Source: a virus (taxonomy: Duplodnaviria > Heunggongvirae > Uroviricota > Caudoviricetes). From it: a stretch of DNA of 12,357 nt. Location of the stretch: the IMG/VR virus record IMGVR_UViG_2703718790_000029; one strand, written 5' to 3'. Every line of letters starts with the position of its first letter. The first letter of the stretch is position 1. A program made the translations under genes and the position numbers. This document shows, one piece after another, positions 1 to 12,357 of this stretch. The notes below the pieces were generated by a model. The model was not told the DNA's origin. It searched no databases and worked only from the letters and a program-made list of their open reading frames with translations.

Positions 1-228
1 TCACTCACTGTTAACCTCCTGCAACGCTACACGATACGCCTTCTTTATCCACGCCTTACTGCCATATAATTTCGTCTTCATAATAAACACACCTGCACGA
101 CTCGCCGATATCCCCGGACAGGTTAACAGCACAGCATCCACCACACGGTTATGCTTCCGAAACTCCATTACAGTACTGCTGATAACCACCTGCCCCACCG
201 GGCCGTAATCCTGATACAGGATTTTCAC
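1..228 (-). CDS. Hypothetical phage protein, 3'-truncated by the window edge
   Basis: ORF runs off the left edge. GTG start at 228 overlaps the upstream stop (GTGA) and is preceded by AGGAGG (revcomp of 236-241), suggesting translational coupling. No family recognised. Confidence 0.45.
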   Translation of the reverse strand: MKILYQDYGPVGQVVISSTVMEFRKHNRVVDAVLLTCPGISASRAGVFIMKTKLYGSKAWIKKAYRVALQEVNSE

Positions 229-506
229 GCAGACACCCTCCTGTCGAAATAAACGTAGTTATTCACTATGCGCAGCGGCATGCCTAATTTTCTGGCAATT
301 TCCCTTCTTTGCATGCCTCTCTGATGCAGTTGCCGCGCCAGCTCAATATCACGCTGAGAATATTTTGCCGACGGGTGAAAATCACCACGTAACATCATGC
401 TGATGCCCAGCTCCCGTGCCTTCGTTCTCACTGCCGCTTCAGTTCGTCCGATAAGTGCGCCAACGCTTTTTACCTTCATCGTTCCCGCACACTGCCGGAG
501 TATCAT
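225..506 (-). CDS. Hypothetical small protein with a C-terminal HTH-like segment (REIARKLGMPLRIVNNYV)
   Basis: Start is ambiguous: ATG at 506 (GGCGGA upstream), ATG at 479 (GGGA upstream) or the ORF-track start at 629, which would overlap the upstream gene by 90 nt. Function not recognised. Confidence 0.4.
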   Translation of the reverse strand: MILRQCAGTMKVKSVGALIGRTEAAVRTKARELGISMMLRGDFHPSAKYSQRDIELARQLHQRGMQRREIARKLGMPLRIVNNYVYFDRRVSA

Positions 507-538
507 GATTTCCGCCCGGCACCACGTCTTCCACCCAC

Positions 539-1300
539 TCACCGCTGCTGTTCTCTGGTGGCGGTAATATCCCGGAGAATATCCCGGCACTTGTTCAGCT
601 CCCGCAGCGCGGCGCAGACTCGCTCCCACTTCTGAACCTGACCTTTTGCCCGGCGCAGCTCGCGGTTAGCCACATGCAGCGATGGTAAAATCAGACCATC
701 CGGATGCTTTCTGGTGAACGACGGCTGTGACTGCACTGTGACCGCCACACTTTCCGTTTTTATTTCTTCCTGTGTTGCGGCTTCCCGGACTGGTAACGCA
801 GCACCTGCTGGCTGAGGAAAGGCCTTACCATCATTTTTCGTTACCGGCGCGGCTTTCGGATCTGCTGGTAAATTACCCCCCGACATGCAGTAACGAAATT
901 TACCGTTCTGATTAACGCGTGCCAGCCGCCCCGTTGCGGTTACCACCGCCAGCGTGGAAGCAACCTTGCGAGTACTGACGCCGAACTTACCCGCCAGTTC
1001 CTCACACGTTTTAGCACCATCCTGACCGATAAACTCAACCATCATGTCTGCGGTAACTTTTGGAGCGACCTCTTCGGTTACCACATCCGGCGCTTCAGGT
1101 TGTAGTGCCTGCCCTTCGGTTACCCCGGCTTCACCTTCGACAGCCAGAAACCAGGTGTGACCCGTTTTATCAACAACGCCATTTTTTTTGAGTTCCCACA
1201 GTTCGTTAAGAACTTCTTCACGGCTGATATCAAGCCGCGCCGCCAGTTCAACAGAATTGGCTTTTCCCATCGCTTTCAGTGCATGCAATACAGTTTCCAT
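539..1300 (-). CDS. Hypothetical phage protein with two winged-helix-like segments
   Basis: 253-aa ORF with ATG at 1300 and GAGG about 11 nt upstream; sits downstream of the helicase-loader gene where lambdoid phages carry nin-region genes. Possibly a DUF1627-type protein; not verified. Confidence 0.55.
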   Translation of the reverse strand: METVLHALKAMGKANSVELAARLDISREEVLNELWELKKNGVVDKTGHTWFLAVEGEAGVTEGQALQPEAPDVVTEEVAPKVTADMMVEFIGQDGAKTCEELAGKFGVSTRKVASTLAVVTATGRLARVNQNGKFRYCMSGGNLPADPKAAPVTKNDGKAFPQPAGAALPVREAATQEEIKTESVAVTVQSQPSFTRKHPDGLILPSLHVANRELRRAKGQVQKWERVCAALRELNKCRDILRDITATREQQR

Positions 1301-1325
1301 CGAAAATTTACCTCGTCAAAAATTC

Positions 1326-2057
1326 TCACATACCCTGACGTCCAACGTTTGACCGCCAGCTCTCCCAGTTAAAATTCACCCAACGACCACCATTCATGGT
1401 CATACGGTCCATCACCCGATCTCCGAGGAGTGTGCTCATCGCTGCGTGATTCAGGTTCGTCAGCATTCCGACACTACGCATCGAAGCCGTTCTGCGGTCG
1501 ACTATCTGGTTCAGCGTGACCTGCTCGTTGCGCGTATCCCGCTGCATGCCAATTTCATCAAGGACCAGAAGGTCAACTCCACAAAGCTCCTGTAAAAATT
1601 TTTCCCCGGACTGGCCGTTGTCGTAGCCGTCATGCAACACGCTCATGACATCGGACACGGTGACGATAATCACGCTTCTCCCCTTCGCCATCAGCCGATT
1701 GCCAATCGCTGCTGCCAGGTGATTTTTACCGGTACCAGGTTTACCGCTGAACACGAAGTTTGTACATCCGGTCATCAATTCATCGGCAATGGATTTCGCC
1801 TGGCTCAGAGCATGGCGCTGACCGTCGTTCTGCACCCGGTAGTTCCCGAATGAGCACTTCCTGTGAAGCGGCTGGATGCCCGCACGGTTCAGGATTTTTT
1901 CAACCCGCACCTGATGATTCAGGCGGTTAATCTCCTCGCTGCGTTTTCGTCCTTCAGCAAGTTGCCATTCCCGCCACTCCTCCACCGTCCGGTACGGTGG
2001 AACCGCCCCCCTGTGGTGCAAGTCTGCGAATACGTTCAAGAACCCCAACTGCCGCAA
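1326..2057 (-). CDS. DnaC-like replicative helicase loader (phage P analogue, YdaV-like)
   Basis: Walker A motif FSGKPGTGKNHLAAAIGN, Walker B LLVLDEIG, and near-collinear similarity to E. coli DnaC as I recall it (e.g. CSFGNYRV, LNQIVDRR, RVMDRM). Start is TTG at 2057 in the ORF track; the true start is uncertain. Confidence 0.85.
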   Translation of the reverse strand: MRQLGFLNVFADLHHRGAVPPYRTVEEWREWQLAEGRKRSEEINRLNHQVRVEKILNRAGIQPLHRKCSFGNYRVQNDGQRHALSQAKSIADELMTGCTNFVFSGKPGTGKNHLAAAIGNRLMAKGRSVIIVTVSDVMSVLHDGYDNGQSGEKFLQELCGVDLLVLDEIGMQRDTRNEQVTLNQIVDRRTASMRSVGMLTNLNHAAMSTLLGDRVMDRMTMNGGRWVNFNWESWRSNVGRQGM

Positions 2058-2073
2058 TGTTTTTCATGACACG

Positions 2074-3036
2074 TCACCCCCTGAATCCCGGCGGTATTTC
2101 AGTGTCCGGTTCAGAAATGTGATTCACGCAACGCTGCGCGGGCGAACGCCCCAGGCGGATAACCAGTTCATCCCATTTTTCCCGGAGTTTTGCCGGACTC
2201 ATGATGTTTTTTACCCAGAACGAATCCCGCTGGAGACGCCCAAACATTTCACAAATTTGTCTGTGAGTTCTGCCATCCAGCATCCGCATTGTCCGCACGT
2301 CATTGGCCCATGCAGTCCAGTTGGGTTCTTTCGGTCTCGTGATCTCGCCATCATCGCTGGCCGCCTGCTCGTAAAGACTCACGATTCGTCCCCAGATCCA
2401 CTGTGCGCACACCAAATCTTCCTGACTTCCCCACTGGCGTTTTTTCGCACTGAACACAACCGCGTCAGGGTGTCGGGTTAAAAAATCCTGTTCAGCCGTC
2501 TGCGGGTCCGGTTGCGAAGCGTCCGGACAAGAAGATCTTTTATCTGACGGATCAGGTTTTAATACTGACGGATCGGGGTCAATCATCGCCCCCCTAATCG
2601 GCAGTTTGTTATCAACAGTTGATCCATCAAAATTTGACGGGTCAACCGTTGAGGGGGCAATATTTGACGGGTCAACTGTTAACGGGTCATTTTTTGCCGG
2701 GCTAATTTTTCTTTTCGGTTTATATGACTCACGCGCCGCCGCCGCAGCTGCTTCGAGTTTTTCCACATTAAGCCGATAGATATTGCTTACATTACGCCCA
2801 CCGACCTTACGCTCTTCCTTCGTCAGCCAGCCCTCTTTCGCCAGTTCTGCAATAGCCGATTTCACTGTGGATTCACTTCTTGCACCGATCTGACGCCGGA
2901 TAGTTTCAATGGCAGGCCATGACACGCCCTCGTCATTGCTGTAGTCTGCAAGACGGGCCATAACCGCCACCCTGGATAAGATCATGCCGGTGAAGGCGCA
3001 CCCTTCCCAGACAAGACCATGAAGCTTGCTGCTCAT
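2074..3036 (-). CDS. Replication initiator, O-like, with N-terminal winged-HTH and DnaT-like C-terminal domain
   Basis: C-terminal ...NHISEPDTEIPPGFRG resembles the C-terminus of E. coli DnaT as recalled. Iteron-like DNA repeats lie inside the gene. ATG at 3036 is preceded by GGGGG; the ORF track's GTG at 3051 is an alternative. Confidence 0.7.
   Translation of the reverse strand: MSSKLHGLVWEGCAFTGMILSRVAVMARLADYSNDEGVSWPAIETIRRQIGARSESTVKSAIAELAKEGWLTKEERKVGGRNVSNIYRLNVEKLEAAAAAARESYKPKRKISPAKNDPLTVDPSNIAPSTVDPSNFDGSTVDNKLPIRGAMIDPDPSVLKPDPSDKRSSCPDASQPDPQTAEQDFLTRHPDAVVFSAKKRQWGSQEDLVCAQWIWGRIVSLYEQAASDDGEITRPKEPNWTAWANDVRTMRMLDGRTHRQICEMFGRLQRDSFWVKNIMSPAKLREKWDELVIRLGRSPAQRCVNHISEPDTEIPPGFRG
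2540..2730. repeat. Putative replication origin: iteron-like direct repeats plus a flanking AT-rich tract inside the O-like gene
   Basis: CTGACGGATC at 2543-2552 and 2564-2573; ATTTGACGGGTCAAC at 2631-2645 and 2661-2675; related GGGTCAA copies near 2575 and GGGTCAT near 2683; T-rich tract 2687-2725. Lambda ori likewise lies within O. Confidence 0.45.
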
Positions 3037-3058
3037 AAAACCCCCGAACACCGTGCTT

Positions 3059-3484
3059 TTAGTGCATCACCACAGCATTCCCTGCCGGGCCGCCGCGATT
3101 CATCTGGTCATACAAAACAACCGCTGACGCAACAAAATCATCGACATCCTTCACCAGCCGATCCCTCCGTTCGACGATCTCACGGTAATATTCAGAACTG
3201 TGGCTGCGCATACGGGCCACCAGCAAAGGCGGCATCGCCTTTTCGATCGCCGGTAACAGAGCCTGCATTTTTTCAACAGCATCAGGGGTGTCTTTATCCA
3301 GCCAACGGAAAATTTTCTGGGTATTACGGGCCAGGGCTTCCGGATGGCTGTCGTCATACAGTTCCGGGAACGTCATTCCCAGCTCGAAATACGCTTTGGT
3401 AATTTTCGCAGCCGGTACTTTTTCGCCGTCCGGATGCGCCCAGACATTCATCGCCATGCGGATGTGTTCATGCTTGATTTTCAT
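3059..3484 (-). CDS. YdaT-like protein (second gene of the cro-side operon)
   Basis: 141-aa ORF starting MKIKHEHI; its ATG overlaps the stop of the upstream YdaS-like gene (ATGA), as in the Rac ydaS-ydaT arrangement. Family assignment from position and size. Confidence 0.55.
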   Translation of the reverse strand: MKIKHEHIRMAMNVWAHPDGEKVPAAKITKAYFELGMTFPELYDDSHPEALARNTQKIFRWLDKDTPDAVEKMQALLPAIEKAMPPLLVARMRSHSSEYYREIVERRDRLVKDVDDFVASAVVLYDQMNRGGPAGNAVVMH

Positions 3485-3783
3485 GAATCAACTCCATCAG
3501 ATAAGCATGCACTACAATCACCTTCAGCATGAACTACATGTGTTTGCCCCAAACGAATGCCGCTCGCATACTCAGGCCAAATAAGCTCCCAATCATGAGG
3601 TCGTAGCTCCGCCCTACTTACTTGGCCTTCCGTCGCAGATTCGATCATAAGGGCGCGGGTTGGAGATATAGCTGTTCGTCCAGACGCCATTTGCGATAAG
3701 TAAGATGGCGATACACCAAGTCTGGCCGCGAATTTCTTAGCATCACCAACCCTTAATGATTTAATAAACTCTTTTAATGTCAT
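3481..3783 (-). CDS. YdaS/Cro-like HTH regulator
   Basis: HTH-like segment AARLGVSPSYLSQMASG and ...GQVSRAELRPHDWE motif; GAGGAAGG Shine-Dalgarno just upstream of ATG 3783; divergent from the repressor-like gene. Confidence 0.65.
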   Translation of the reverse strand: MTLKEFIKSLRVGDAKKFAARLGVSPSYLSQMASGRTAISPTRALMIESATEGQVSRAELRPHDWELIWPEYASGIRLGQTHVVHAEGDCSACLSDGVDS

Positions 3784-3880
3784 ACCTTCCTCGGTTTAGT
3801 GTTTTTTTGCGAGTTTAGTGTTTAATAAACCATTAAGTCAAGTATTTGCTTGTTTAGTGATTACTAAAGATAATTACCAC
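3784..3880. promoter_or_regulatory. Divergent promoter/operator region (OR-like)
   Basis: Three direct GTTTAGTG copies (3794-3801, 3813-3820, 3852-3859). Candidate plus-strand promoter TTGCTT 3846-3851, 17-bp spacer, GATAAT 3869-3874, putting the start at about ATG 3881 (leaderless). Candidate minus-strand promoter TTGACT (revcomp of 3836-3841), TAAACT (revcomp of 3812-3817). Confidence 0.5.
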
Positions 3881-4252
3881 ATGCAAAAAAAAGAAATTCG
3901 CCGTTTACGTCTCAAGGAGTGGTTTAAAGATAAAACTCTGCCACCCAAAGAGAAGAGCTACCTATCTCAACTAATGAGTGGGAGAGCCTCGTTTGGAGAA
4001 AAGGCTGCCAGAAGAATAGAGCAAACATACGGGATGCCGGAAGGGTATCTGGATGCGGAATACGCAGAACAACCGGGGGTTTCTCCACCACATGCAGGGT
4101 TAACGTCTAATCAACTGGAATTATTGCAGATTTTTTCAGCCTTCCCTGAGGATGAGCAACGCCAGATAATCAGCGAGTTAAAGCAGAAAAAAGAATCAAT
4201 GGAAGATCTCATAGCGAGATGGATTGCGGCGCAAAAATGCCGCCGCGCCTGA
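3881..4252 (+). CDS. paaR2: PaaR2-like HTH regulator; candidate prophage repressor (cI position)
   Basis: First gene of a three-gene operon with the PaaA2/ParE2-like pair; N-terminal XRE-type HTH-like segment; no Shine-Dalgarno before ATG 3881. The ORF-track start (GTG 3818) is probably an over-extension. Confidence 0.55.
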   Translation: MQKKEIRRLRLKEWFKDKTLPPKEKSYLSQLMSGRASFGEKAARRIEQTYGMPEGYLDAEYAEQPGVSPPHAGLTSNQLELLQIFSAFPEDEQRQIISELKQKKESMEDLIARWIAAQKCRRA

Positions 4253-4272
4253 GTTATAAAACCGGAGGAAAC

Positions 4273-4464
4273 ATGAATAGAGCCCTTTCACCAATGGTTT
4301 CTGAATTTGAAACCATTGAACAAGAAAACAGTTACAACGAATGGCTGCGTGCGAAAGTAGCAACGAGCCTTGCAGATCCGCGCCCAGCAATTCCCCATGA
4401 CGAAGTTGAGCGCAGAATGGCAGAACGCTTTGCTAAGATGCGCAAGGAACGGAGCAAGCAGTAA
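4273..4464 (+). CDS. paaA2: PaaA2-like antitoxin (63 aa)
   Basis: GGAGG at 4264-4268 before ATG 4273; 63-aa product MNRALSPMVSEFETIEQENSYNEWLRAK... matches my recollection of E. coli O157 PaaA2; sits immediately upstream of the ParE-like toxin. Confidence 0.7.
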   Translation: MNRALSPMVSEFETIEQENSYNEWLRAKVATSLADPRPAIPHDEVERRMAERFAKMRKERSKQ

Positions 4465-4465
4465 A

Positions 4466-4744
4466 ATGTTACCCGTGTTATGGCTTGAAAGCGCAGATAC
4501 CGACCTAGATGATATAACTAGTTATATTGCTCGTTTCGACATAGATGCGGCTGAACGCTTATGGCAGCGATTAAGGGGTTGTGTGCTGCCGTTATCCGAA
4601 CATCCGTATTTATACCCACCAAGCGACAGAGTACCTAGCTTGCGTGAGATTGTAGCCCACCCTAACTATATAATTCTATACCGCGTAACAACATCAAGCG
4701 TTGAAGTAGTAAACGTGATCCACGCAAGACGCCAGTTTCCCTAA
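4466..4744 (+). CDS. parE2: ParE2-like toxin (RelE/ParE superfamily, 92 aa)
   Basis: ATG at 4466 lies 1 nt after the antitoxin stop; size and antitoxin-then-toxin order are typical of ParE family modules. The ORF-track start at 4370 overlaps the antitoxin and is unlikely. Confidence 0.7.
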   Translation: MLPVLWLESADTDLDDITSYIARFDIDAAERLWQRLRGCVLPLSEHPYLYPPSDRVPSLREIVAHPNYIILYRVTTSSVEVVNVIHARRQFP

Positions 4745-4762
4745 CTTTCACTACCAATAGAA

Positions 4763-4826
4763 ACATAACAACCGCAACGACTTTATCAAAAGCGTTGTGT
4801 TTGTTATGTCCCGCGGTTTAGTTTTT
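4763..4826 (+). terminator. Long imperfect hairpin downstream of parE2 (possible operon terminator or stabiliser)
   Basis: 4763-4779 ACATAACAACCGCAACG pairs with 4793-4809 CGTTGTGTTTGTTATGT (17 bp, one mismatch, one G-U); loop of 13 nt; T-run at 4822-4826 is not immediately adjacent to the stem. Confidence 0.4.
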
Positions 4827-4860
4827 ACTTGACTTAAGTTTAATGTTTATTAAACTAAAA
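4826..4860 (+). promoter_or_regulatory. pL-like promoter with an operator-like element (OL-like)
   Basis: TTGACT 4829-4834, 16-bp spacer, TAAACT 4851-4856. The segment 4826-4855 is an inverted copy of 3820-3844 (shared TACTTGACTTAA ... TTTATTAAAC). Confidence 0.45.
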
Positions 4861-5030
4861 ATACCACCCCGCCCCACAGAACGCAGGGAAATACTTCGAG
4901 TTACCCGGCAGTGGTCAGGGGTTAAGTAGCCAGCCCGAGGCGTATGAACATGACGGCAGGGTTCAACTTTAATAACTATGCAGCAGGTTTTTGTTCCGCT
5001 ACCCCGGCGTTAAGGGGAAATGAGGTCAGC

Positions 5031-5183
5031 ATGGATACTATCGATCTTGGCAACAACGCATCTCTGGTGTACGGCGTGTTTCCAAACCAGGACGGCACGT
5101 TCACCGCAATGACGTATACCAAAAGCAAAACGTTTAAAACCGAAAATGGTGCCCGTCGCTGGCTTGCCAAAAATACCAGCTAA
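5031..5183 (+). CDS. Small hypothetical protein (50 aa), possibly YdaF/YdfA-like
   Basis: GAGG at 5022-5025 is 5 nt before ATG 5031; an in-frame ATG at 4944 would give 79 aa. Family guessed from size and position only. Confidence 0.4.
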   Translation: MDTIDLGNNASLVYGVFPNQDGTFTAMTYTKSKTFKTENGARRWLAKNTS

Positions 5184-5381
5184 ACCATTTATTGGATTAA
5201 TTCAATATTCTTGCTGTAGGGGTATAGCCGAGGCCACCAAAGCCCGGAGGTGGTGAAATAAAACCGGGCACAACACGAAGGCGCATTTCCGGTATCCATA
5301 AAGAGTCGGTCTTGTCTGTTAAATTTAAATGGTGGGAGTGCGCCTCCGGTTGTGAATAACAACACTGCTGTGTGTAGTCTT

Positions 5382-5428
5382 GGCGGCATCAGTTTTTTCT
5401 TGAAGTTCGACTGATGTCCGCCCTTTTT
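5382..5428 (+). terminator. Intrinsic terminator-like hairpin
   Basis: GGCGGCATCAG (5382-5392) pairs with CTGATGTCCGCC (5411-5422), followed by CTTTTT (5423-5428). Confidence 0.55.
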
Positions 5429-5603
5429 AAAGTGAATTTTGTGATGCGGTGAATGCGGCTAAGCGCACGCGGCACAGTTAAAAGTCATGTTAGTCCTTAT
5501 TGGTTTGGGTGGGAAAGCCGACTGTAATTGTTAACTGGTTGCAGTCACCTGGAGGCACCAGGCACCGCATCAACAAAGTTCATTTGTAAAAATGGAGATA
5601 ATT

Positions 5604-5825
5604 ATGATTGCACATCACTTCGGAACTGATGAAATACCACGTCAGTGTGTGACTCCTGGTGATTATGTTCTTCATGAAGGCCGGACATATATCGCCTCGG
5701 CAAACAATATTAAAAAGCGAAAACTTTATATTCGTAACCTGACTACAAAAACATGCATTTCTGACTGCATGATTAAAGTCTTCCTCGGTCGTGATGGTTT
5801 ACCTGTAAAGGCGGAGTCATGGTGA
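5604..5825 (+). CDS. kilR: KilR-like cell-division inhibitor
   Basis: GGAG at 5594-5597 before ATG 5604; 73-aa product; sits upstream of ydaE-racC-recE as in Rac. Identity from size, order and partial sequence recollection. Confidence 0.6.
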
Positions 5826-5995
5826 TGACTAAGAAAATAAAATGTGCTTACCACCTTTGCAATAAAGGAATTGAAGAAAGCAAAAGCATTAAAAGACCAC
5901 TTCATTTCATGCGTGGAGTTATCCCAACGACGGAAATGAAAAAATATTGTAGTGAAAATTGTGCCGAAAAAGACCAGATGGCACACGAACTTTAA
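5825..5995 (+). CDS. ydaE: YdaE-like small zinc-binding protein (56 aa)
   Basis: Not in the ORF track (under 60 aa). Its ATG at 5825 overlaps the kilR stop (ATGGTGATG); product has two Cys pairs (KCAYHLC ... YCSENC); 56 aa matches Rac YdaE. Confidence 0.55.
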   Translation: MTKKIKCAYHLCNKGIEESKSIKRPLHFMRGVIPTTEMKKYCSENCAEKDQMAHEL

Positions 5996-6068
5996 TTAAC
6001 TGACTATGCGAAACTGAATTTATGCCAGCAATGGCAGGGATTCGCTCAACCTTAATTAAGGAGAAAAA

Positions 6069-6344
6069 ATGATTACCAATTATGAAGTCACTGTTGTAAC
6101 TACCGATGACATTGTTCACGAGGTTAATCTGGAAGGAAAGCGTATTGGCTACGTGATTAAAACAGAAAATAAAGAAACCCCATTCACTGTGGTTGATATT
6201 GACGGTCCATCAGGCAACGTAAAAACACTTGATGAAGGTGTCACAAAAATGAGTCTGGTTCACATCGGAAAGAATCTGCCCGCAGAAAAAAAAGCCGGAT
6301 TTCTGGCAACTCTGATTGCAATGAAATTAAAAGGTGAAATCTGA
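6069..6344 (+). CDS. racC: RacC-like protein (91 aa)
   Basis: AAGGAG at 6057-6062 before ATG 6069; 91 aa, immediately upstream of recE as in Rac. Confidence 0.55.
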   Translation: MITNYEVTVVTTDDIVHEVNLEGKRIGYVIKTENKETPFTVVDIDGPSGNVKTLDEGVTKMSLVHIGKNLPAEKKAGFLATLIAMKLKGEI

Positions 6345-6442
6345 AAAAAGAAAGCCTGCACAACGTGCAGGCCTGAGTGAAGAACCTGGGACATTTATTC
6401 ATCACTCGCAGTAATTTTAATCTGAGTTGAGGTTAAAAAACA

Positions 6443-8960
6443 ATGAGCACAAAACCACTCTTCCTTTTACGGAAAGCGAAAAAATCATCCGGTGAACCTG
6501 ACGTCGTCCTGTGGGCAAGCGACGATTTTGAATCAACCTGTGCCACTCTGGACTACCTGATCGTTAAGTCAGGTAAAAAACTGAGCAACTATTTTAAAGC
6601 TGTTGCCACAAATTTTCCTGTCGTTAATGACCTTCCCCCTGAAGGTGAGATCGATTTTACCTGGAGTGAACGCTATCAACTCAGCAAAGACTCCATGACC
6701 TGGGAACTAAAACCGGGAGCAGCGCCAGACGACGTTCACCATCAGGAGGATGCACCGGAAACCGAAGAACCGACGGGAGGCCAGGAAGAAAACGCGCAGG
6801 CAGACGCCCACGAGGATTGCCAGGATTGCGAAGTCTCTGTAGCCACTTTGCGGTTCACACAGCGTCTTCTGCACATTTTTACGTATGCAGCCGGGGATCG
6901 AAAATACCTGCATCATGCCACCCGTGAACAACGCAAACACATTACTGCTCTTGAGATGGATCAGGAAAACAGCTATGTCCAGAATCTGCTGTTGGCCATA
7001 CGCAGCATGGCAGAACCGACAACTCTGGATAATGCCGCCCTGCTCCGCCTGACTGATGCAATTAAGGCAGTGTTCTCTATCACGAAAAAACATCAGCCCT
7101 ATGAATTTAAGAATTTCATTTCAGCCTGGCTGGATACCGAACACATTGATCGCGGTCTTCTGACAAAAGAATGGCGAAAAGGGAATCGTGTTTCACGCAT
7201 CACTCGCACGGCTTCCGGTGCTAATGCTGGCGGCGGGAACCTCACCGATCGCGGCGAAGGTTTCGTCCACGATCTGACATCACTGGCGCGCGATGTAGCC
7301 ACTGGCGTACTGGCCCGTTCAATGGACGTGGACATCTATAACCTTCATCCGGCACACGCTAAACGCATTGAGGAAATTATCGCTGAAAATAAACCACCCT
7401 TTTCTGTTTTCCGCGACAAATTCATCACCATGCCTGGCGGGCTGGATTATTCCCGCGCCATCGTGGTTGCGTCCGTGAAAGAAGCACCAATTGGGATCGA
7501 GGTCATCCCCGCACACGTCACTGAATATCTGAACAAAGTACTGACTGAAACCGATCATGCCAACCCTGATCCGGAAATCGTGGATATTGCCTGCGGTCGC
7601 TCCTCGGCCCCGATGCCGCAACGAGTAACAGAAGAAGGAAAACAGGACGATGAAGAAAAACCACAACCATCTGGCGCAATGGCAGATGAACAGGCAACGG
7701 CTGAAACAGTGGAACCGAATGCAACTGAACATCATCAGAACACGCAGCCGCTGGATGCTCAGTCACAGGTAAATTCTGTTGATGCGAAATATCAGGAACT
7801 GCGGGCAGAACTCCATGAAGCCCGGAAAAACATTCCATCAAAAAATCCTGTCGATGCCGATAAATTGCTTGCTGCATCACGTGGTGAATTTGTTGACGGA
7901 ATTAGCGACCCGAACGATCCGAAATGGGTTAAGGGGATCCAGACTCGCGATTCTGTGTACCAGAACCAGCCAGAAACGGAAAAAATCAGCCCGGATGCGA
8001 AACAACCTGAGCCAGTAGTGCAACAGGAACCGGAAATAGTCTGCAATGCCTGCGGTCAGACTGGCGGGGATAACTGCCCTGACTGTGGTGCGGTGATGGG
8101 CGACGCAACATACCAGGAAACATTCGGTGAAGAGAATCAGGTTGAAGCTAAGGAAAAAGATCCGGAGGAAATGGAAGGCGCTGAACATCCGCACAATGAG
8201 AATGCTGGCAGCGATCCGCATCGCGATTGCAGTGATGAAACTGGCGAAGTCGCAGATCCCGTAATCGTAGAAGACATAGAGCCAGGTATTTATTACGGAA
8301 TTTCGAATGAGAATTACCACGCGGGTCCCGGCGTCAGTAAGTCTCAGCTCGATGACATTGCTGATACTCCGGCACTGTATTTGTGGCGTAAAAATGCCCC
8401 CGTGGACACTACAAAGACAAAAACGCTCGATTTAGGAACCGCTTTCCACTGCCGGGTACTTGAACCGGAAGAATTCAGTAACCGCTTTATCGTAGCACCT
8501 GAATTTAACCGCCGTACAAACGCCGGAAAAGAAGAAGAGAAAGCGTTTCTGATGGAATGCGCAAGCACAGGAAAAACGGTTATCACTGCGGAAGAAGGCC
8601 GGAAAATTGAACTCATGTATCAACGCGTTATGGCTTTGCCGCTGGGGCAATNNNNNNNNNNNNNNNNNNNNNNNNNNNNNNNNNNNNNNNNNNNNNNNNN
8701 NNNNNNNNNNNNNNNNNNACGGTTATGAAGCACAGTTTGGCGTGCTGCCAACTTTCGTTTTTCTGGTTGCCAGCACAACTGTTGAATGCGGACGTTACCC
8801 GGTTGAGATTTTCATGATGGGCGAAGAAGCAAAACTGGCAGGCCAGCAGGAATATCACCGCAATCTGAGGACCCTGGCTGACTGCCTGAATACCGATGAA
8901 TGGCCAGCTATTAAAACGTTATCACTGCCCCGCTGGGCTAAGGAGTATGCAAATGACTAA
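6443..8960 (+). CDS. recE: RecE exonuclease VIII, interrupted by an assembly gap
   Basis: Long acidic N-terminal region and a C-terminal nuclease domain (...[36 protein letters not shown]...[17 protein letters not shown]...). The post-gap reading ends ...[10 protein letters not shown] at 8960 and overlaps the recT start (ATGACTAA). Frame across the gap cannot be verified. Confidence 0.8.
8652..8718. other. Assembly gap (67 N)
   Basis: Run of N characters inside recE. Confidence 0.99.
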
Positions 8961-9762
8961 GCAACCACCTATCGCAAAAGCCGATCTGCAAAAAACCCAG
9001 GGAAACCGTGCACCAGCAGCAGTAAAAAATAACGACGTGATCAGCTTTATTAATCAGCCATCAATGAAAGAGCAACTGGCAGCAGCTCTCCCACGCCATA
9101 TGACGGCTGAACGAATGATACGTATCGCCACCACAGAAATTCGTAAGGTTCCGGCGCTAGGAAACTGTGACACCATGAGTTTTGTCAGTGCGATCGTTCA
9201 GTGTTCACAGCTCGGCCTTGAGCCAGGTAGCGCCCTCGGCCACGCATATTTACTGCCTTTTGGTAATAAAAACGAAAAGAGCGGTAAAAAGAACGTTCAG
9301 CTAATCATTGGTTATCGCGGCATGATTGATCTGGCTCGCCGTTCTGGTCAAATCGCCAGCCTGTCAGCCCGTGTTGTCCGTGAAGGTGACGAGTTTAGTT
9401 TTGAATTTGGCCTTGATGAAAAGTTAATACACCGCCCGGGAGAAAACGAAGATGCACCAGTGACCCACGTCTATGCTGTCGCAAGACTGAAAGACGGAGG
9501 GACTCAGTTTGAAGTTATGACGCGCAAACAGATTGAACTGGTGCGCAGCCAGAGTAAGGCTGGTAATAACGGGCCATGGGTAACTCACTGGGAAGAAATG
9601 GCAAAAAAAACGGCTATTCGTCGCCTGTTTAAATACCTGCCTGTCTCAATTGAAATCCAGCGTGCAGTATCAATGGATGAAAAGGAACCACTGACAATCG
9701 ATCCGGCAGACTCCTCTGTATTAACCGGGGAATACAGTGTAATCGATAATTCAGAAGAATAA
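8953..9762 (+). CDS. recT: RecT single-strand annealing protein (269 aa)
   Basis: AAGGAG at 8939-8944 before ATG 8953; product [18 protein letters not shown]... matches Rac RecT as recalled over its full length. The ORF-track start at 8896 is an upstream extension. Confidence 0.9.
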
Positions 9763-9818
9763 TTCAGCCTGGCGGTGTAATGCACCGCCAACGTGAGACA
9801 GTTTTTATGACAAAAATT

Positions 9819-10013
9819 ATGAGATATGACGATGTTAAACCATGTCCGTTTTGTGGTTGTCCATCTGTTACAGTGAAAGCAATTTCAGGATATTACCGGG
9901 CAAAATGCAACGGATGCGAATCCCGAACTGGCTATGGTGGAAGTGAAAAAGAAGCACTCGAAAGATGGAATAAACGAACTACTGGAAATAATAATGGAGG
10001 TGTTCATGTATAA
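9819..10013 (+). CDS. ralR: Lar/RalR-like restriction-alleviation protein (64 aa)
   Basis: Zinc-ribbon motifs CPFCGC ... CNGCES; position between recT and xis as in Rac. Alternative start at ATG 9807. Confidence 0.6.
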   Translation: MRYDDVKPCPFCGCPSVTVKAISGYYRAKCNGCESRTGYGGSEKEALERWNKRTTGNNNGGVHV

Positions 10014-10194
10014 AATAACTGCCACTATTGAAAAAGAAGGTGGCACTCCTACTAACTGGACAAGATATTCAAAATCTAAATTAACGAAATCAGAATGCGA
10101 AAAAATGCTCTCAGGGAAAAAAGAAGCAGGCGTGTCCAGAGAGCAGAAAGTAAAGCTGATAAATTTTAATTGCGAGAAACTTCTGTCCTCGTGA
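10006..10194 (+). CDS. YdaC-like small protein (62 aa)
   Basis: GGAGG at 9995-9999 before ATG 10006, which overlaps the ralR stop (ATGTATAA); sits between ralR and xis as ydaC does in Rac. Confidence 0.45.
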   Translation: MYKITATIEKEGGTPTNWTRYSKSKLTKSECEKMLSGKKEAGVSREQKVKLINFNCEKLLSS

Positions 10195-10300
10195 GTTGCA
10201 TTATATACAAATTAGAACTTCATAGCTGATTATTAAAAATCAACCACACCCGCCAGTATTCTGTATATTTACTGGCGGTCATATCGTAAGAGGTATGGCA

Positions 10301-10582
10301 ATGAATCTTGTGACACTCAAAACGTGGGGAAAACTCAGATATCCGGATAACCCACCATCAATATCAACGCTGAGACGATGGGCAAGGAATGGAAACATTT
10401 ATCCTGCACCTGAACTACACGGGAGGAGTTACAGGGTGGTTCCGGAAGCTTTCTATATCAACCCAAATAAGGTTGATACCGATATAACACACCATCAGCC
10501 TAATGGGCGACAAGGGAGAGACAGTCCGTTACTGGAGAAGTTAAAACATGCAGCGGAAAAAATACGATCCCAATTTACCTAA
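10301..10582 (+). CDS. xis: Excisionase (Xis)
   Basis: Small basic protein immediately upstream of int, overlapping it by 35 nt; AAGAGG at 10288-10293 favours ATG 10301 over 10295. Confidence 0.7.
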   Translation: MNLVTLKTWGKLRYPDNPPSISTLRRWARNGNIYPAPELHGRSYRVVPEAFYINPNKVDTDITHHQPNGRQGRDSPLLEKLKHAAEKIRSQFT

Positions 10583-11663
10583 AAACTTAACATATCGAAG
10601 GAGGGACAAAGCATATTACTGGCGCAACCCTCTGACGAAAGAAGAATTTACACTAGGTAAAATTTCAAGAAGAGATGCAGTAGCGCAGGCAATTGAAGCA
10701 AATCATTATATATACAAAAACTACTCTCCTGCTGCCTTAATTGAAAAACTAAAAGGGTTCGACTCATTTACTATGGCAGACTGGATTGAACGTTACAAAA
10801 CGATTCTTATAAGGAGAAAAGTGTCCAGAAATACTTATAAAATTCGGGTAAATCAACTGGAGACAATAAAAGAAAAATTAGGAGGGGTTTTACTGACAGA
10901 AATAACCACTCGCCATATTGCCGAGTTTCTTGATTTGTGGATTGAAGGAGGGAAAAACACGATGGCAGGATCAATGCGTTCTGTGTTATCTGATATGTTC
11001 CGCGAGGCCATTGTTGAAGGACGTATATCTCAAAATCCAGTAACGCCAACAAGAGCACCGAAAATAGTAGTTACAAGAGAACGGCTGAAACTAAAGACAT
11101 ACAACTGCATCAGGGAGGCAGCAGATCAACTTCCGACATGGTTCCCATTAGCTATGGACTTAGCCCTTGTAACAGGACAACGTCGCGAAGACATAACAAA
11201 TATGCGGTTCAGTGAGATTTATGATGATCGTCTCCACATCAGGCAAATTAAGACAGGAATGATGATTGCTATCCCCCTGTCACTCAGCCTTCCTGTCGCT
11301 GGTTTACGACTTGGTACAGTAGTTGAACAGTGCCGCATGGTAAGTAGGGGGGATTATCTAATCAGTGCCGGGATTAGAAAAAACAGCCCTGACGGCAGCA
11401 TTCACCCGGACGGCCTGACAAAGAAATTTGTCGCAGCCAGAAAATTAACAGGTATCCAGTTCAGTGAAAACCCACCAACTTTTCACGAGATCAGAAGCCT
11501 GGCTGGACGATTGTACAAAGAAACATGTGGGGAAGAATTTGCTCAACGTCTACTTGGCCACACATCGGAGAAGACAACAAAAATGTATCTTGATGAGAGA
11601 GAAAAAACGTACTACTGCTCTGATTTTAACGTAAATGGATTGTTAAATGTGTTTTGGTTGTGA
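10548..11663 (+). CDS. int: Lambda-family tyrosine integrase
   Basis: N-terminal arm-binding-like region ([27 protein letters not shown]); catalytic-region motifs [23 protein letters not shown] and a C-terminal Tyr in [10 protein letters not shown], paralleling lambda Int as recalled. Confidence 0.9.
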
Positions 11664-11690
11664 TATAACCAAAAAAGACCGGAATACAGA

Positions 11691-11712
11691 AATTCGAGTA
11701 AATTTCGAGTAA
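11691..11712 (+). repeat. Tandem ~11-bp repeat (ATTTCGAGTAA x2) in the P'-arm region; candidate arm-type Int sites
   Basis: AAATTCGAGTAA followed by ATTTCGAGTAA, between the int stop and the inferred core. Confidence 0.3.
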
Positions 11713-11754
11713 TTTCGGGGAGACGTTTGCAACTAATTGATTTTAAATACAATT

Positions 11755-11777
11755 AAAAAAAGACCGAATACGATTCC
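11755..11777. other. Putative attL core (3'-terminal ~23 nt of sdsR)
   Basis: Placed from the recalled report (Balbontin et al. 2008) that the last ~23 bp of ryeB serve as a phage attachment site. The exact crossover cannot be set without the other prophage end or an unoccupied site. Confidence 0.4.
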
Positions 11778-11857
11778 TGTATTCGGTCCAGGGAAATGGC
11801 TCTTGGGAGAGAGCCGTGCGCTAAAAGTTGGCATTAATGCAGGCTTAGTTGCCTTGC
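11755..11857 (-). ncRNA. sdsR: SdsR (RyeB) small RNA
   Basis: Revcomp of 11755-11857 reads GCAAGGCAACTAAGCCTGCATTAATGCC...CTGGACCGAATACAGGAATCGTATTCGGTCTTTTTTT, matching SdsR as I recall it, including the 10-bp terminator stem and U-tract. Confidence 0.7.
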
Positions 11858-11986
11858 CCTTTAAGAATAGATGACGACGCCAGGTTTTCCAGTTTGCGTG
11901 CAAAATGGTCAATAAAAAGCGTGGTGGTCATCAGCTGAAATGTTAAAAACCGCCCGTTCTGGTGAAAGAACTGAGGCGGTTTTTTT
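11760..11986 (+). ncRNA. ryeA: Possible RyeA/SraC antisense RNA (ends approximate)
   Basis: RyeA is known to be antisense to and longer than RyeB. A plus-strand promoter-like TTGCAA (11727-11732) ... TACAAT (11748-11753) and the terminator at 11948-11986 would bound a transcript of about 230 nt. Inferred, not directly supported. Confidence 0.3.
11858..11900 (-). promoter_or_regulatory. Candidate sigma-S-type promoter of sdsR
   Basis: Revcomp of 11865-11871 reads CTATTCT, resembling the extended sigma-S -10 (CTATACT), a few nt upstream of the inferred 5' end. Confidence 0.4.
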
Positions 11987-11990
11987 ATTG
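11946..11990. terminator. Bidirectional intrinsic terminator
   Basis: AACCGCC (11948-11954) pairs with GGCGGTT (11975-11981), extended by GTTCT/AGAAC; A-run 11943-11949 on one side and T-run 11980-11986 on the other. Confidence 0.7.
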
Positions 11991-12015
11991 GAAATCAAAA
12001 GGCTATTTTAGGTAA

Positions 12016-12357
12016 TTAACAGAGTTTTTCAGCTCGTTCTATAAACGGTGCCAGACTCATTTTTTCGCCGGGATTGTTAGGATCATCAATCTGAATCACC
12101 GAAATGGGTTGGGCTTTAGTCTTCCCACTGGCAACTTCCTTTTGTGCGATATCGTTTAAAGGATACTGCACGAGGGTACTTGGGTTAATGACATACAAAG
12201 CATTACCCGGTCTGCAAGTCAGCATCACCTCTTCGCGATTAAACGCCCATTTGTCTTTACCCACTTCAAAACGACTGACGGTAATCACCTGCGGTGCAGC
12301 CAGCGCCGCTGCAGAACTGGTGAGTAACAGAAACGTCAGAATACTTTTTTTCATCAT
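12016..12357 (-). CDS. yebY: YebY-like small secreted protein (host gene)
   Basis: 113-aa ORF with an N-terminal signal peptide ([22 protein letters not shown]); start at the window edge. Matches my recollection of E. coli YebY, which neighbours the ryeA/ryeB locus. Confidence 0.65.

Follow-up and report, generated by a model that had tools for sequence, protein, structure and literature searches.

The paaA2-parE2 gene pair

The window, the whole stretch of DNA analysed here, comprises 12,357 nucleotides of a Caudoviricetes virus record (IMG/VR IMGVR_UViG_2703718790_000029). Positions 4273–4744 hold two open reading frames (ORFs) on the same strand, delimited by direct reading of the sequence. 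The first, paaA2 (4273–4464, plus strand), runs from an ATG at 4273 to a TAA at 4462–4464 and encodes a 63-aa antitoxin without a DNA-binding domain (MNRALSPMVSEF...KERSKQ). The second, parE2 (4466–4744, plus strand), runs from an ATG at 4466 to a TAA at 4742–4744 and encodes a 92-aa ParE-family toxin carrying serine at position 58 (MLPVLWLESADT...HARRQFP). A single A (4465) is the only base between the paaA2 stop and the parE2 start, which are coupled, and a Shine-Dalgarno sequence, GGAGGA, lies at 4264–4269 just 5' of the paaA2 ATG. The original prediction had described a 63-aa antitoxin-like gene and a 92-aa toxin-like gene separated by a 1-nt gap, and re-reading the sequence reproduces the coordinates, lengths, and spacing exactly to the base.

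It had further named the antitoxin as PaaA2 type and the toxin as ParE family, proposing a similarity search against PaaA2 and ParE2 as a check. This search was run and finds strong matches for both proteins in the PDB and in Pfam. Residues 2–63 of PaaA2 align with PDB entries 3ZBE, 5CW7, and 5CZE over 62 positions with zero mismatches (E 5.5e-37), and the protein scores 70.7 bits against Pfam PF21217 (PaaA2; cutoff 27) and 84.1 bits against NCBIfam NF050103 (cutoff 50). Its accession, WP_001302048.1, is common to O26 and O157 records. At E ≤ 0.01 Pfam returns PaaA2 alone and neither an RHH nor an HTH domain, and published work likewise describes PaaA2 as having no DNA-binding domain (PMC8251345). 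According to published work on the O157:H7 locus, free PaaA2 is mostly disordered and folds around ParE2, neutralising the toxin. Its proteolysis is carried out by ClpAP and ClpXP (PMC8630535).

ParE2 is identical to the crystallised ParE2 of PDB 5CW7 and 5CZE at 91 of 92 residues (E 5.7e-59), the only difference being G58S. Its score against Pfam PF05016 (ParE_toxin) is 60.2 bits with a cutoff of 23, the match covering profile positions 1–89 of 89. With Pfam scores above cutoff for both products, paaA2 and parE2 can be regarded as true genes and chance ORFs are excluded on this sequence evidence.

The family of the toxin deserves closer consideration, as RefSeq labels the corresponding genes of E. 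coli O26:H11 str. 11368 'type II toxin-antitoxin system RelB family antitoxin' and 'RelE/ParE family toxin'. These names, together with a weak match of the toxin to the RelE_StbE model (TIGR02385), would suit a RelE-like mRNA interferase instead of a ParE-type toxin acting on DNA topology. However, the RelE_StbE match reaches 20.7 bits, under its cutoff of 27.9, while that to Pfam ParE_toxin is far over cutoff, and the solved relatives recovered for ParE2 in the PDB search, including the nearest after ParE2 itself, are ParE toxins throughout. A published structure-based comparison also finds that RelE activity needs a C-terminal helix which ParE toxins do not have, and ParE2 of O157:H7 reportedly associates with the nucleoid and triggers the SOS response upon overproduction (PMC8630535). 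An mRNA interferase is accordingly so improbable as to be negligible, and RelE-type identity was rejected on the match falling under the NCBIfam cutoff.

As a ParE toxin, ParE2 shares its fold family (PF05016) with the canonical two-gene parDE systems, such as those of RK2, Caulobacter crescentus (ParDE1, 3KXE), Mesorhizobium (5CEG/6X0A), and Vibrio cholerae (ParDE2). Similarity to the canonical ParE structures is distant, with E values of about 5e-5 to 3e-4. In contrast to canonical parDE, transcriptional control here resides in a separate repressor, PaaR2. The target may differ as well. Gyrase is the target poisoned by canonical ParE, but no interaction between E. coli O157 ParE2 and GyrA was observed (PMC8251345), and this canonical trait may fail in the ParE2 branch of the family. 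The published work on the O157:H7 locus includes both toxicity of ParE2 and its neutralisation. Toxicity of the protein alone, with DNA damage and SOS, is reported for an O157:H7 ParE2 that is one residue off the window protein (PMC8630535).

Repressor, divergent regulators, and operators

The gene directly upstream of paaA2 is paaR2 (3881–4252, plus strand), the first of the operon, which encodes a CI-like repressor of 123 aa. The protein begins with MQKKE, the N-terminal sequence determined experimentally (PMC8630535), and its residues 1–66 are those of PDB 7NKV and 8C3K, 'phage repressor protein CI' (66/66). It is identical to its counterpart in O157:H7 FRIK944 at 122 of 123 residues, with V67 here and G67 there. 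In O157:H7 the paaR2 transcript is leaderless and starts at the ATG, as for lambda cI (PMC8630535).

On the opposite strand lie ydaS (3481–3783, minus strand), a divergent gene for a Cro-like regulator, and ydaT (3059–3484, minus strand), a gene for a CII-like activator. YdaS matches Pfam YdaS_toxin and HTH_3 and falls in PHROG 35 (transcriptional repressor). YdaT falls in PHROG 163 (CII-like transcriptional activator) and shows zero mismatches to PDB 8BT1 over residues 2–141. Both proteins have accessions common to O26 and O157 records. The Cro-like function of YdaS and the CII-like function of YdaT, which activates a PRE-type promoter, were described for O157:H7 (PMC8630535), and DNA binding by YdaT appears to be the subject of its own paper (PMC9986795).

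The divergent control region between ydaS and paaR2 (3784–3880) contains PRM/PR-type promoters and GTTTAGT-type operator repeats. It is base-identical to that of O157:H7 FRIK944, and its 97 bp equal the length reported for CP-933P (PMC8630535). A consensus scan places a promoter-like TTGACT-18-TAAACT on the minus strand at 3841–3812, corresponding to a PR-like site. Downstream of parE2, a region at 4816–4856 (plus strand) holds a PL-type promoter and OL-type operator repeats. Here the scan finds a promoter-like TTGACT-16-TAAACT on the plus strand at 4829–4856, with the same hexamers as the PR-like site. The -35 and -10 elements of PL933P are reported to equal those of the PR-type promoter (PMC8630535). 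The two putative promoters sit where PR933P and PL933P are described, which fits the published match between their hexamers.

The distribution of the published operator half-site GTTTAGTAA is informative only locally. With up to two mismatches allowed, 8 of its 44 matches in the window fall at 3794–3869, and four operator-like matches lie at 4816–4855. The whole-window count is uninformative, as the 44 matches stand against an expectation of 32.9, and 44 was reached in 5 of 200 shuffles, a marginal enrichment. The PL-type region has no substitutions relative to O157, and a 5-bp indel lies just outside it, beside window base 4863. The indel comes shortly after the PL-type promoter and borders a minus-strand hairpin (4883–4865) that resembles a terminator.

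Relation to the O157:H7 type locus and prophage setting

The paaR2-paaA2-parE2 system was first described in the O157:H7 cryptic prophage CP-933P / Sp12 (Hallez et al. 2010, as cited in PMC8630535). Its literature includes Jurenas et al. 2021 (PMC8630535) and PDB entries 3ZBE, 5CW7, 5CZE, 5CZF, and 7NKV. In the window, the three genes keep the order and spacing that they have in CP-933P / Sp12, with PaaA2 identical and the ydaS and ydaT accessions, the 97-bp control region, and the PL-type hexamers all shared. Direct alignment of window 3059–5020 with O157:H7 FRIK944 leaves three SNPs in addition to the single 5-bp indel. One SNP is silent in ydaS and the other two give V67 for G67 in PaaR2 and S58 for G58 in ParE2, the only protein differences from CP-933P / Sp12 in the operon.

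Window 4273–4744 is therefore almost certainly paaA2 and parE2, which together with paaR2 make up a three-component type II toxin-antitoxin operon. The operon is situated within a lambdoid prophage, in its immunity region, and the host is an O26:H11-type E. coli. All of the system's defining features that can be examined in sequence are present, and at this level the locus is the paaR2-paaA2-parE2 system itself, beyond mere functional resemblance. The system is already known, with its genes, structures, regulation, and addiction phenotype published. Because this exact system has been characterised both genetically and structurally, the result is a correct identification rather than a discovery. 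It carries little weight as the latter, as RefSeq annotates these genes in hundreds of genomes. Since PaaA2 and ParE2 were correctly named from raw sequence, the locus serves instead as a good positive control.

The prophage itself can be placed through the E. coli O26:H11 str. 11368 chromosome, to which window bases 1–8651 are 100% identical and bases 8719–12357 are 99.95% identical. Between these segments, within recE, stands a run of 67 N (8652–8718) where O26:H11 11368 has 201 bases. Judged against that sequence, the run reflects masking or an assembly gap rather than real sequence. The 11368 annotation describes a lambdoid prophage extending from a Q antiterminator, RusA, and replication genes through kilR, ydaE, recE, recT, ralR, xis, and int beside yebY. 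The gene pair sits in its immunity region, in agreement with the prediction that it is carried by a prophage.

The prophage backbone is nevertheless unlike that of CP-933P, with homology limited to window 564–5020 (98.7%). This O157:H7-similar block covers replication genes, the immunity region, the toxin-antitoxin pair, and PL, and ends within a DUF1391 ORF (4944–5183). Past its end, the prophage continues with a Rac-like left arm (kilR, ydaE, recE, recT, ralR, xis, and int beside yebY). In the O157 prophage, which is integrated beside ynfA, the corresponding arm carries ydfC, dicB, and another exonuclease. As similarity to the CP-933P-type prophage is confined to 564–5020, the block bearing the toxin-antitoxin genes has evidently been exchanged between prophage backbones. 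The difference in backbone is ordinary lambdoid mosaicism.

A DnaC-like 'ATP-binding protein' gene within this block (1326–2067, minus strand) carries a frameshift close to its 5' end, whereas the O157:H7 copy is intact, and the RefSeq record of O26:H11 11368 calls the gene a pseudogene. These features point to a replication-defective, i.e. cryptic, prophage.

Taken with the single substitution in the toxin relative to the studied ParE2, an apparently defective prophage could mean that the pair is a decaying remnant, with G58S having inactivated or weakened the toxin and the genes persisting merely because the cryptic prophage awaits deletion. The substitution arises from an SNP, with A4637 in the window and G in O157. 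However, the surroundings of position 58 are variable in three distant ParE structures, and therefore G58S is probably tolerated. One of these relatives, 5CEG, has a serine at position 58 in a pairwise alignment with a gap nearby. Both frames are intact and coupled stop to start, when rapid decay of the pair would normally be expected alongside a dead toxin. The S58 allele also recurs, with at least 17 genomes, mostly O26-type, carrying the sequence at 100% identity. A remnant with an impaired toxin is very unlikely on this evidence. Loss of function by G58S was likewise judged unlikely, given the variable position and the preservation of the S58 allele unchanged in many O26-type genomes.

Across E. 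coli, 633 of 5426 complete genomes contain the 472-bp paaA2-parE2 pair, which is intact at ≥99% identity in 577 of them, with many O157:H7, O26, O111, and O121 strains among the matches listed. One deposited phage genome, Escherichia phage Evi (LR597642.1), contains the whole operon at 98.8% identity. As the operon is intact in this phage, the module is not limited to cryptic prophages, and confinement to such elements was ruled out. The Evi parE2 frame (locus positions 3586–3864) is intact and of the G58 form, and was left out of the Evi annotation, in which only paaR2 ('putative regulator') and paaA2 (hypothetical protein) are called.

A related arrangement is found in E. coli GF60, where a repressor, a 63-aa antitoxin, and a ParE-like toxin stand beside ydaS/ydaT homologues (GF60 locus positions 2573–3477). 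An alignment of 450 bases puts the toxin-antitoxin DNA of GF60 at 91% identity to the window. Its repressor, however, has an N-terminal half unrelated to PaaR2 and a similar C-terminal domain. With the pair placed behind a different repressor, the same toxin-antitoxin cargo has thus been joined to a different immunity specificity. The GF60 pair may be akin to the paaR1-paaA1-parE1 paralogue of CP-933M. PaaA1 and PaaA2 do not cross-neutralise each other's toxins (PMC4803016).

Regulation and proposed function of the module

At the O157:H7 locus, paaR2-paaA2-parE2 form one operon repressed by PaaR2 (PMC8630535). The promoter region in the window is identical to that of O157, hence co-transcription and repression by PaaR2 are very likely the same here. 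The original prediction that the pair is co-transcribed with the candidate repressor is thereby borne out, with paaR2 directly upstream and a single operon published for the near-identical locus. Because the proteins and control DNA are nearly unchanged, the remaining O157:H7 mechanism is inferred to apply to the window locus too. In this mechanism, the CI-like PaaR2 and the Cro-like YdaS compete for operators that overlap, both within the 97-bp region and at the PL-like promoter, and the PaaR2/YdaS region adopts two stable, heritable expression states (PMC8630535).

This organisation resembles that of lambda in several respects. The repressor gene is leaderless, the operators are of OR/OL type, and there are Cro-like and CII-like partners (PMC8630535). 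As in lambda cI-rexA-rexB, the lysogeny repressor gene is followed immediately by accessory genes that the lysogen expresses together with it. The sequences, however, are unrelated. RexAB serves in exclusion, while PaaA2-ParE2 belongs to the type II toxin-antitoxin pairs and has been shown to confer addiction. Lambda CI also has an autocleavage domain, while PaaR2 has none and is unresponsive to mitomycin C (PMC8630535).

The shared position behind a co-expressed CI-like repressor nonetheless raises an anti-phage role. The pair would then act mainly in abortive infection or superinfection exclusion, where an incoming phage stops host expression or triggers decay of PaaA2 and the freed ParE2 aborts the infection. 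The lambda cI-rexA-rexB gene group is described alongside the operon in PMC8630535, and the general literature appears increasingly to tie toxin-antitoxin systems to phage defence. Against this, a PADLOC scan of PaaR2, PaaA2, and ParE2 (E ≤ 0.01) gives zero matches to defence-system models. The titles and abstracts of eight of the 14 papers that mention both PaaA2 and abortive infection reveal no such test of the pair, these eight looking like general reviews or structural papers, and the published phenotype is post-segregational killing (PMC8630535). Defence against phages is therefore unlikely to be the main role.

The evidence from O157:H7 instead favours addiction. An unstable mini-F plasmid is stabilised via post-segregational killing either by the operon alone or by the whole ydaST-paaR2-paaA2-parE2 region (PMC8630535). 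Were the module lost from a cell, the unstable PaaA2 would decay and ParE2 would then kill or arrest that cell. With antitoxin decay and ParE2 killing following module loss, the pair would act as an addiction module that keeps the immunity region, and hence the prophage, in the genome, the published stabilisation having been measured on plasmids. In either expression state at steady state, ParE2 activity, followed as SOS induction, was not detected (PMC8630535).

The authors of the O157:H7 study proposed that the pair keeps rearrangement of the immunity region in check (PMC8630535). A less ordinary reading of the window is that the toxin-antitoxin immunity/replication block (564–5020) moved as a unit into the Rac-like backbone, and that the pair may police exchange of immunity regions by killing heteroimmune recombinants, or abort infection by incoming phages via a non-GyrA target. 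This combined scenario is speculative and is considered improbable.

Two further host-killing genes are located on the same prophage arm. These are kilR (5604–5825), annotated as 'killing protein KilR', and ralR (9819–10013), whose annotation is that of an endodeoxyribonuclease toxin from a type I toxin-antitoxin system. The O26 record also has a hok/gef gene immediately beyond the window.
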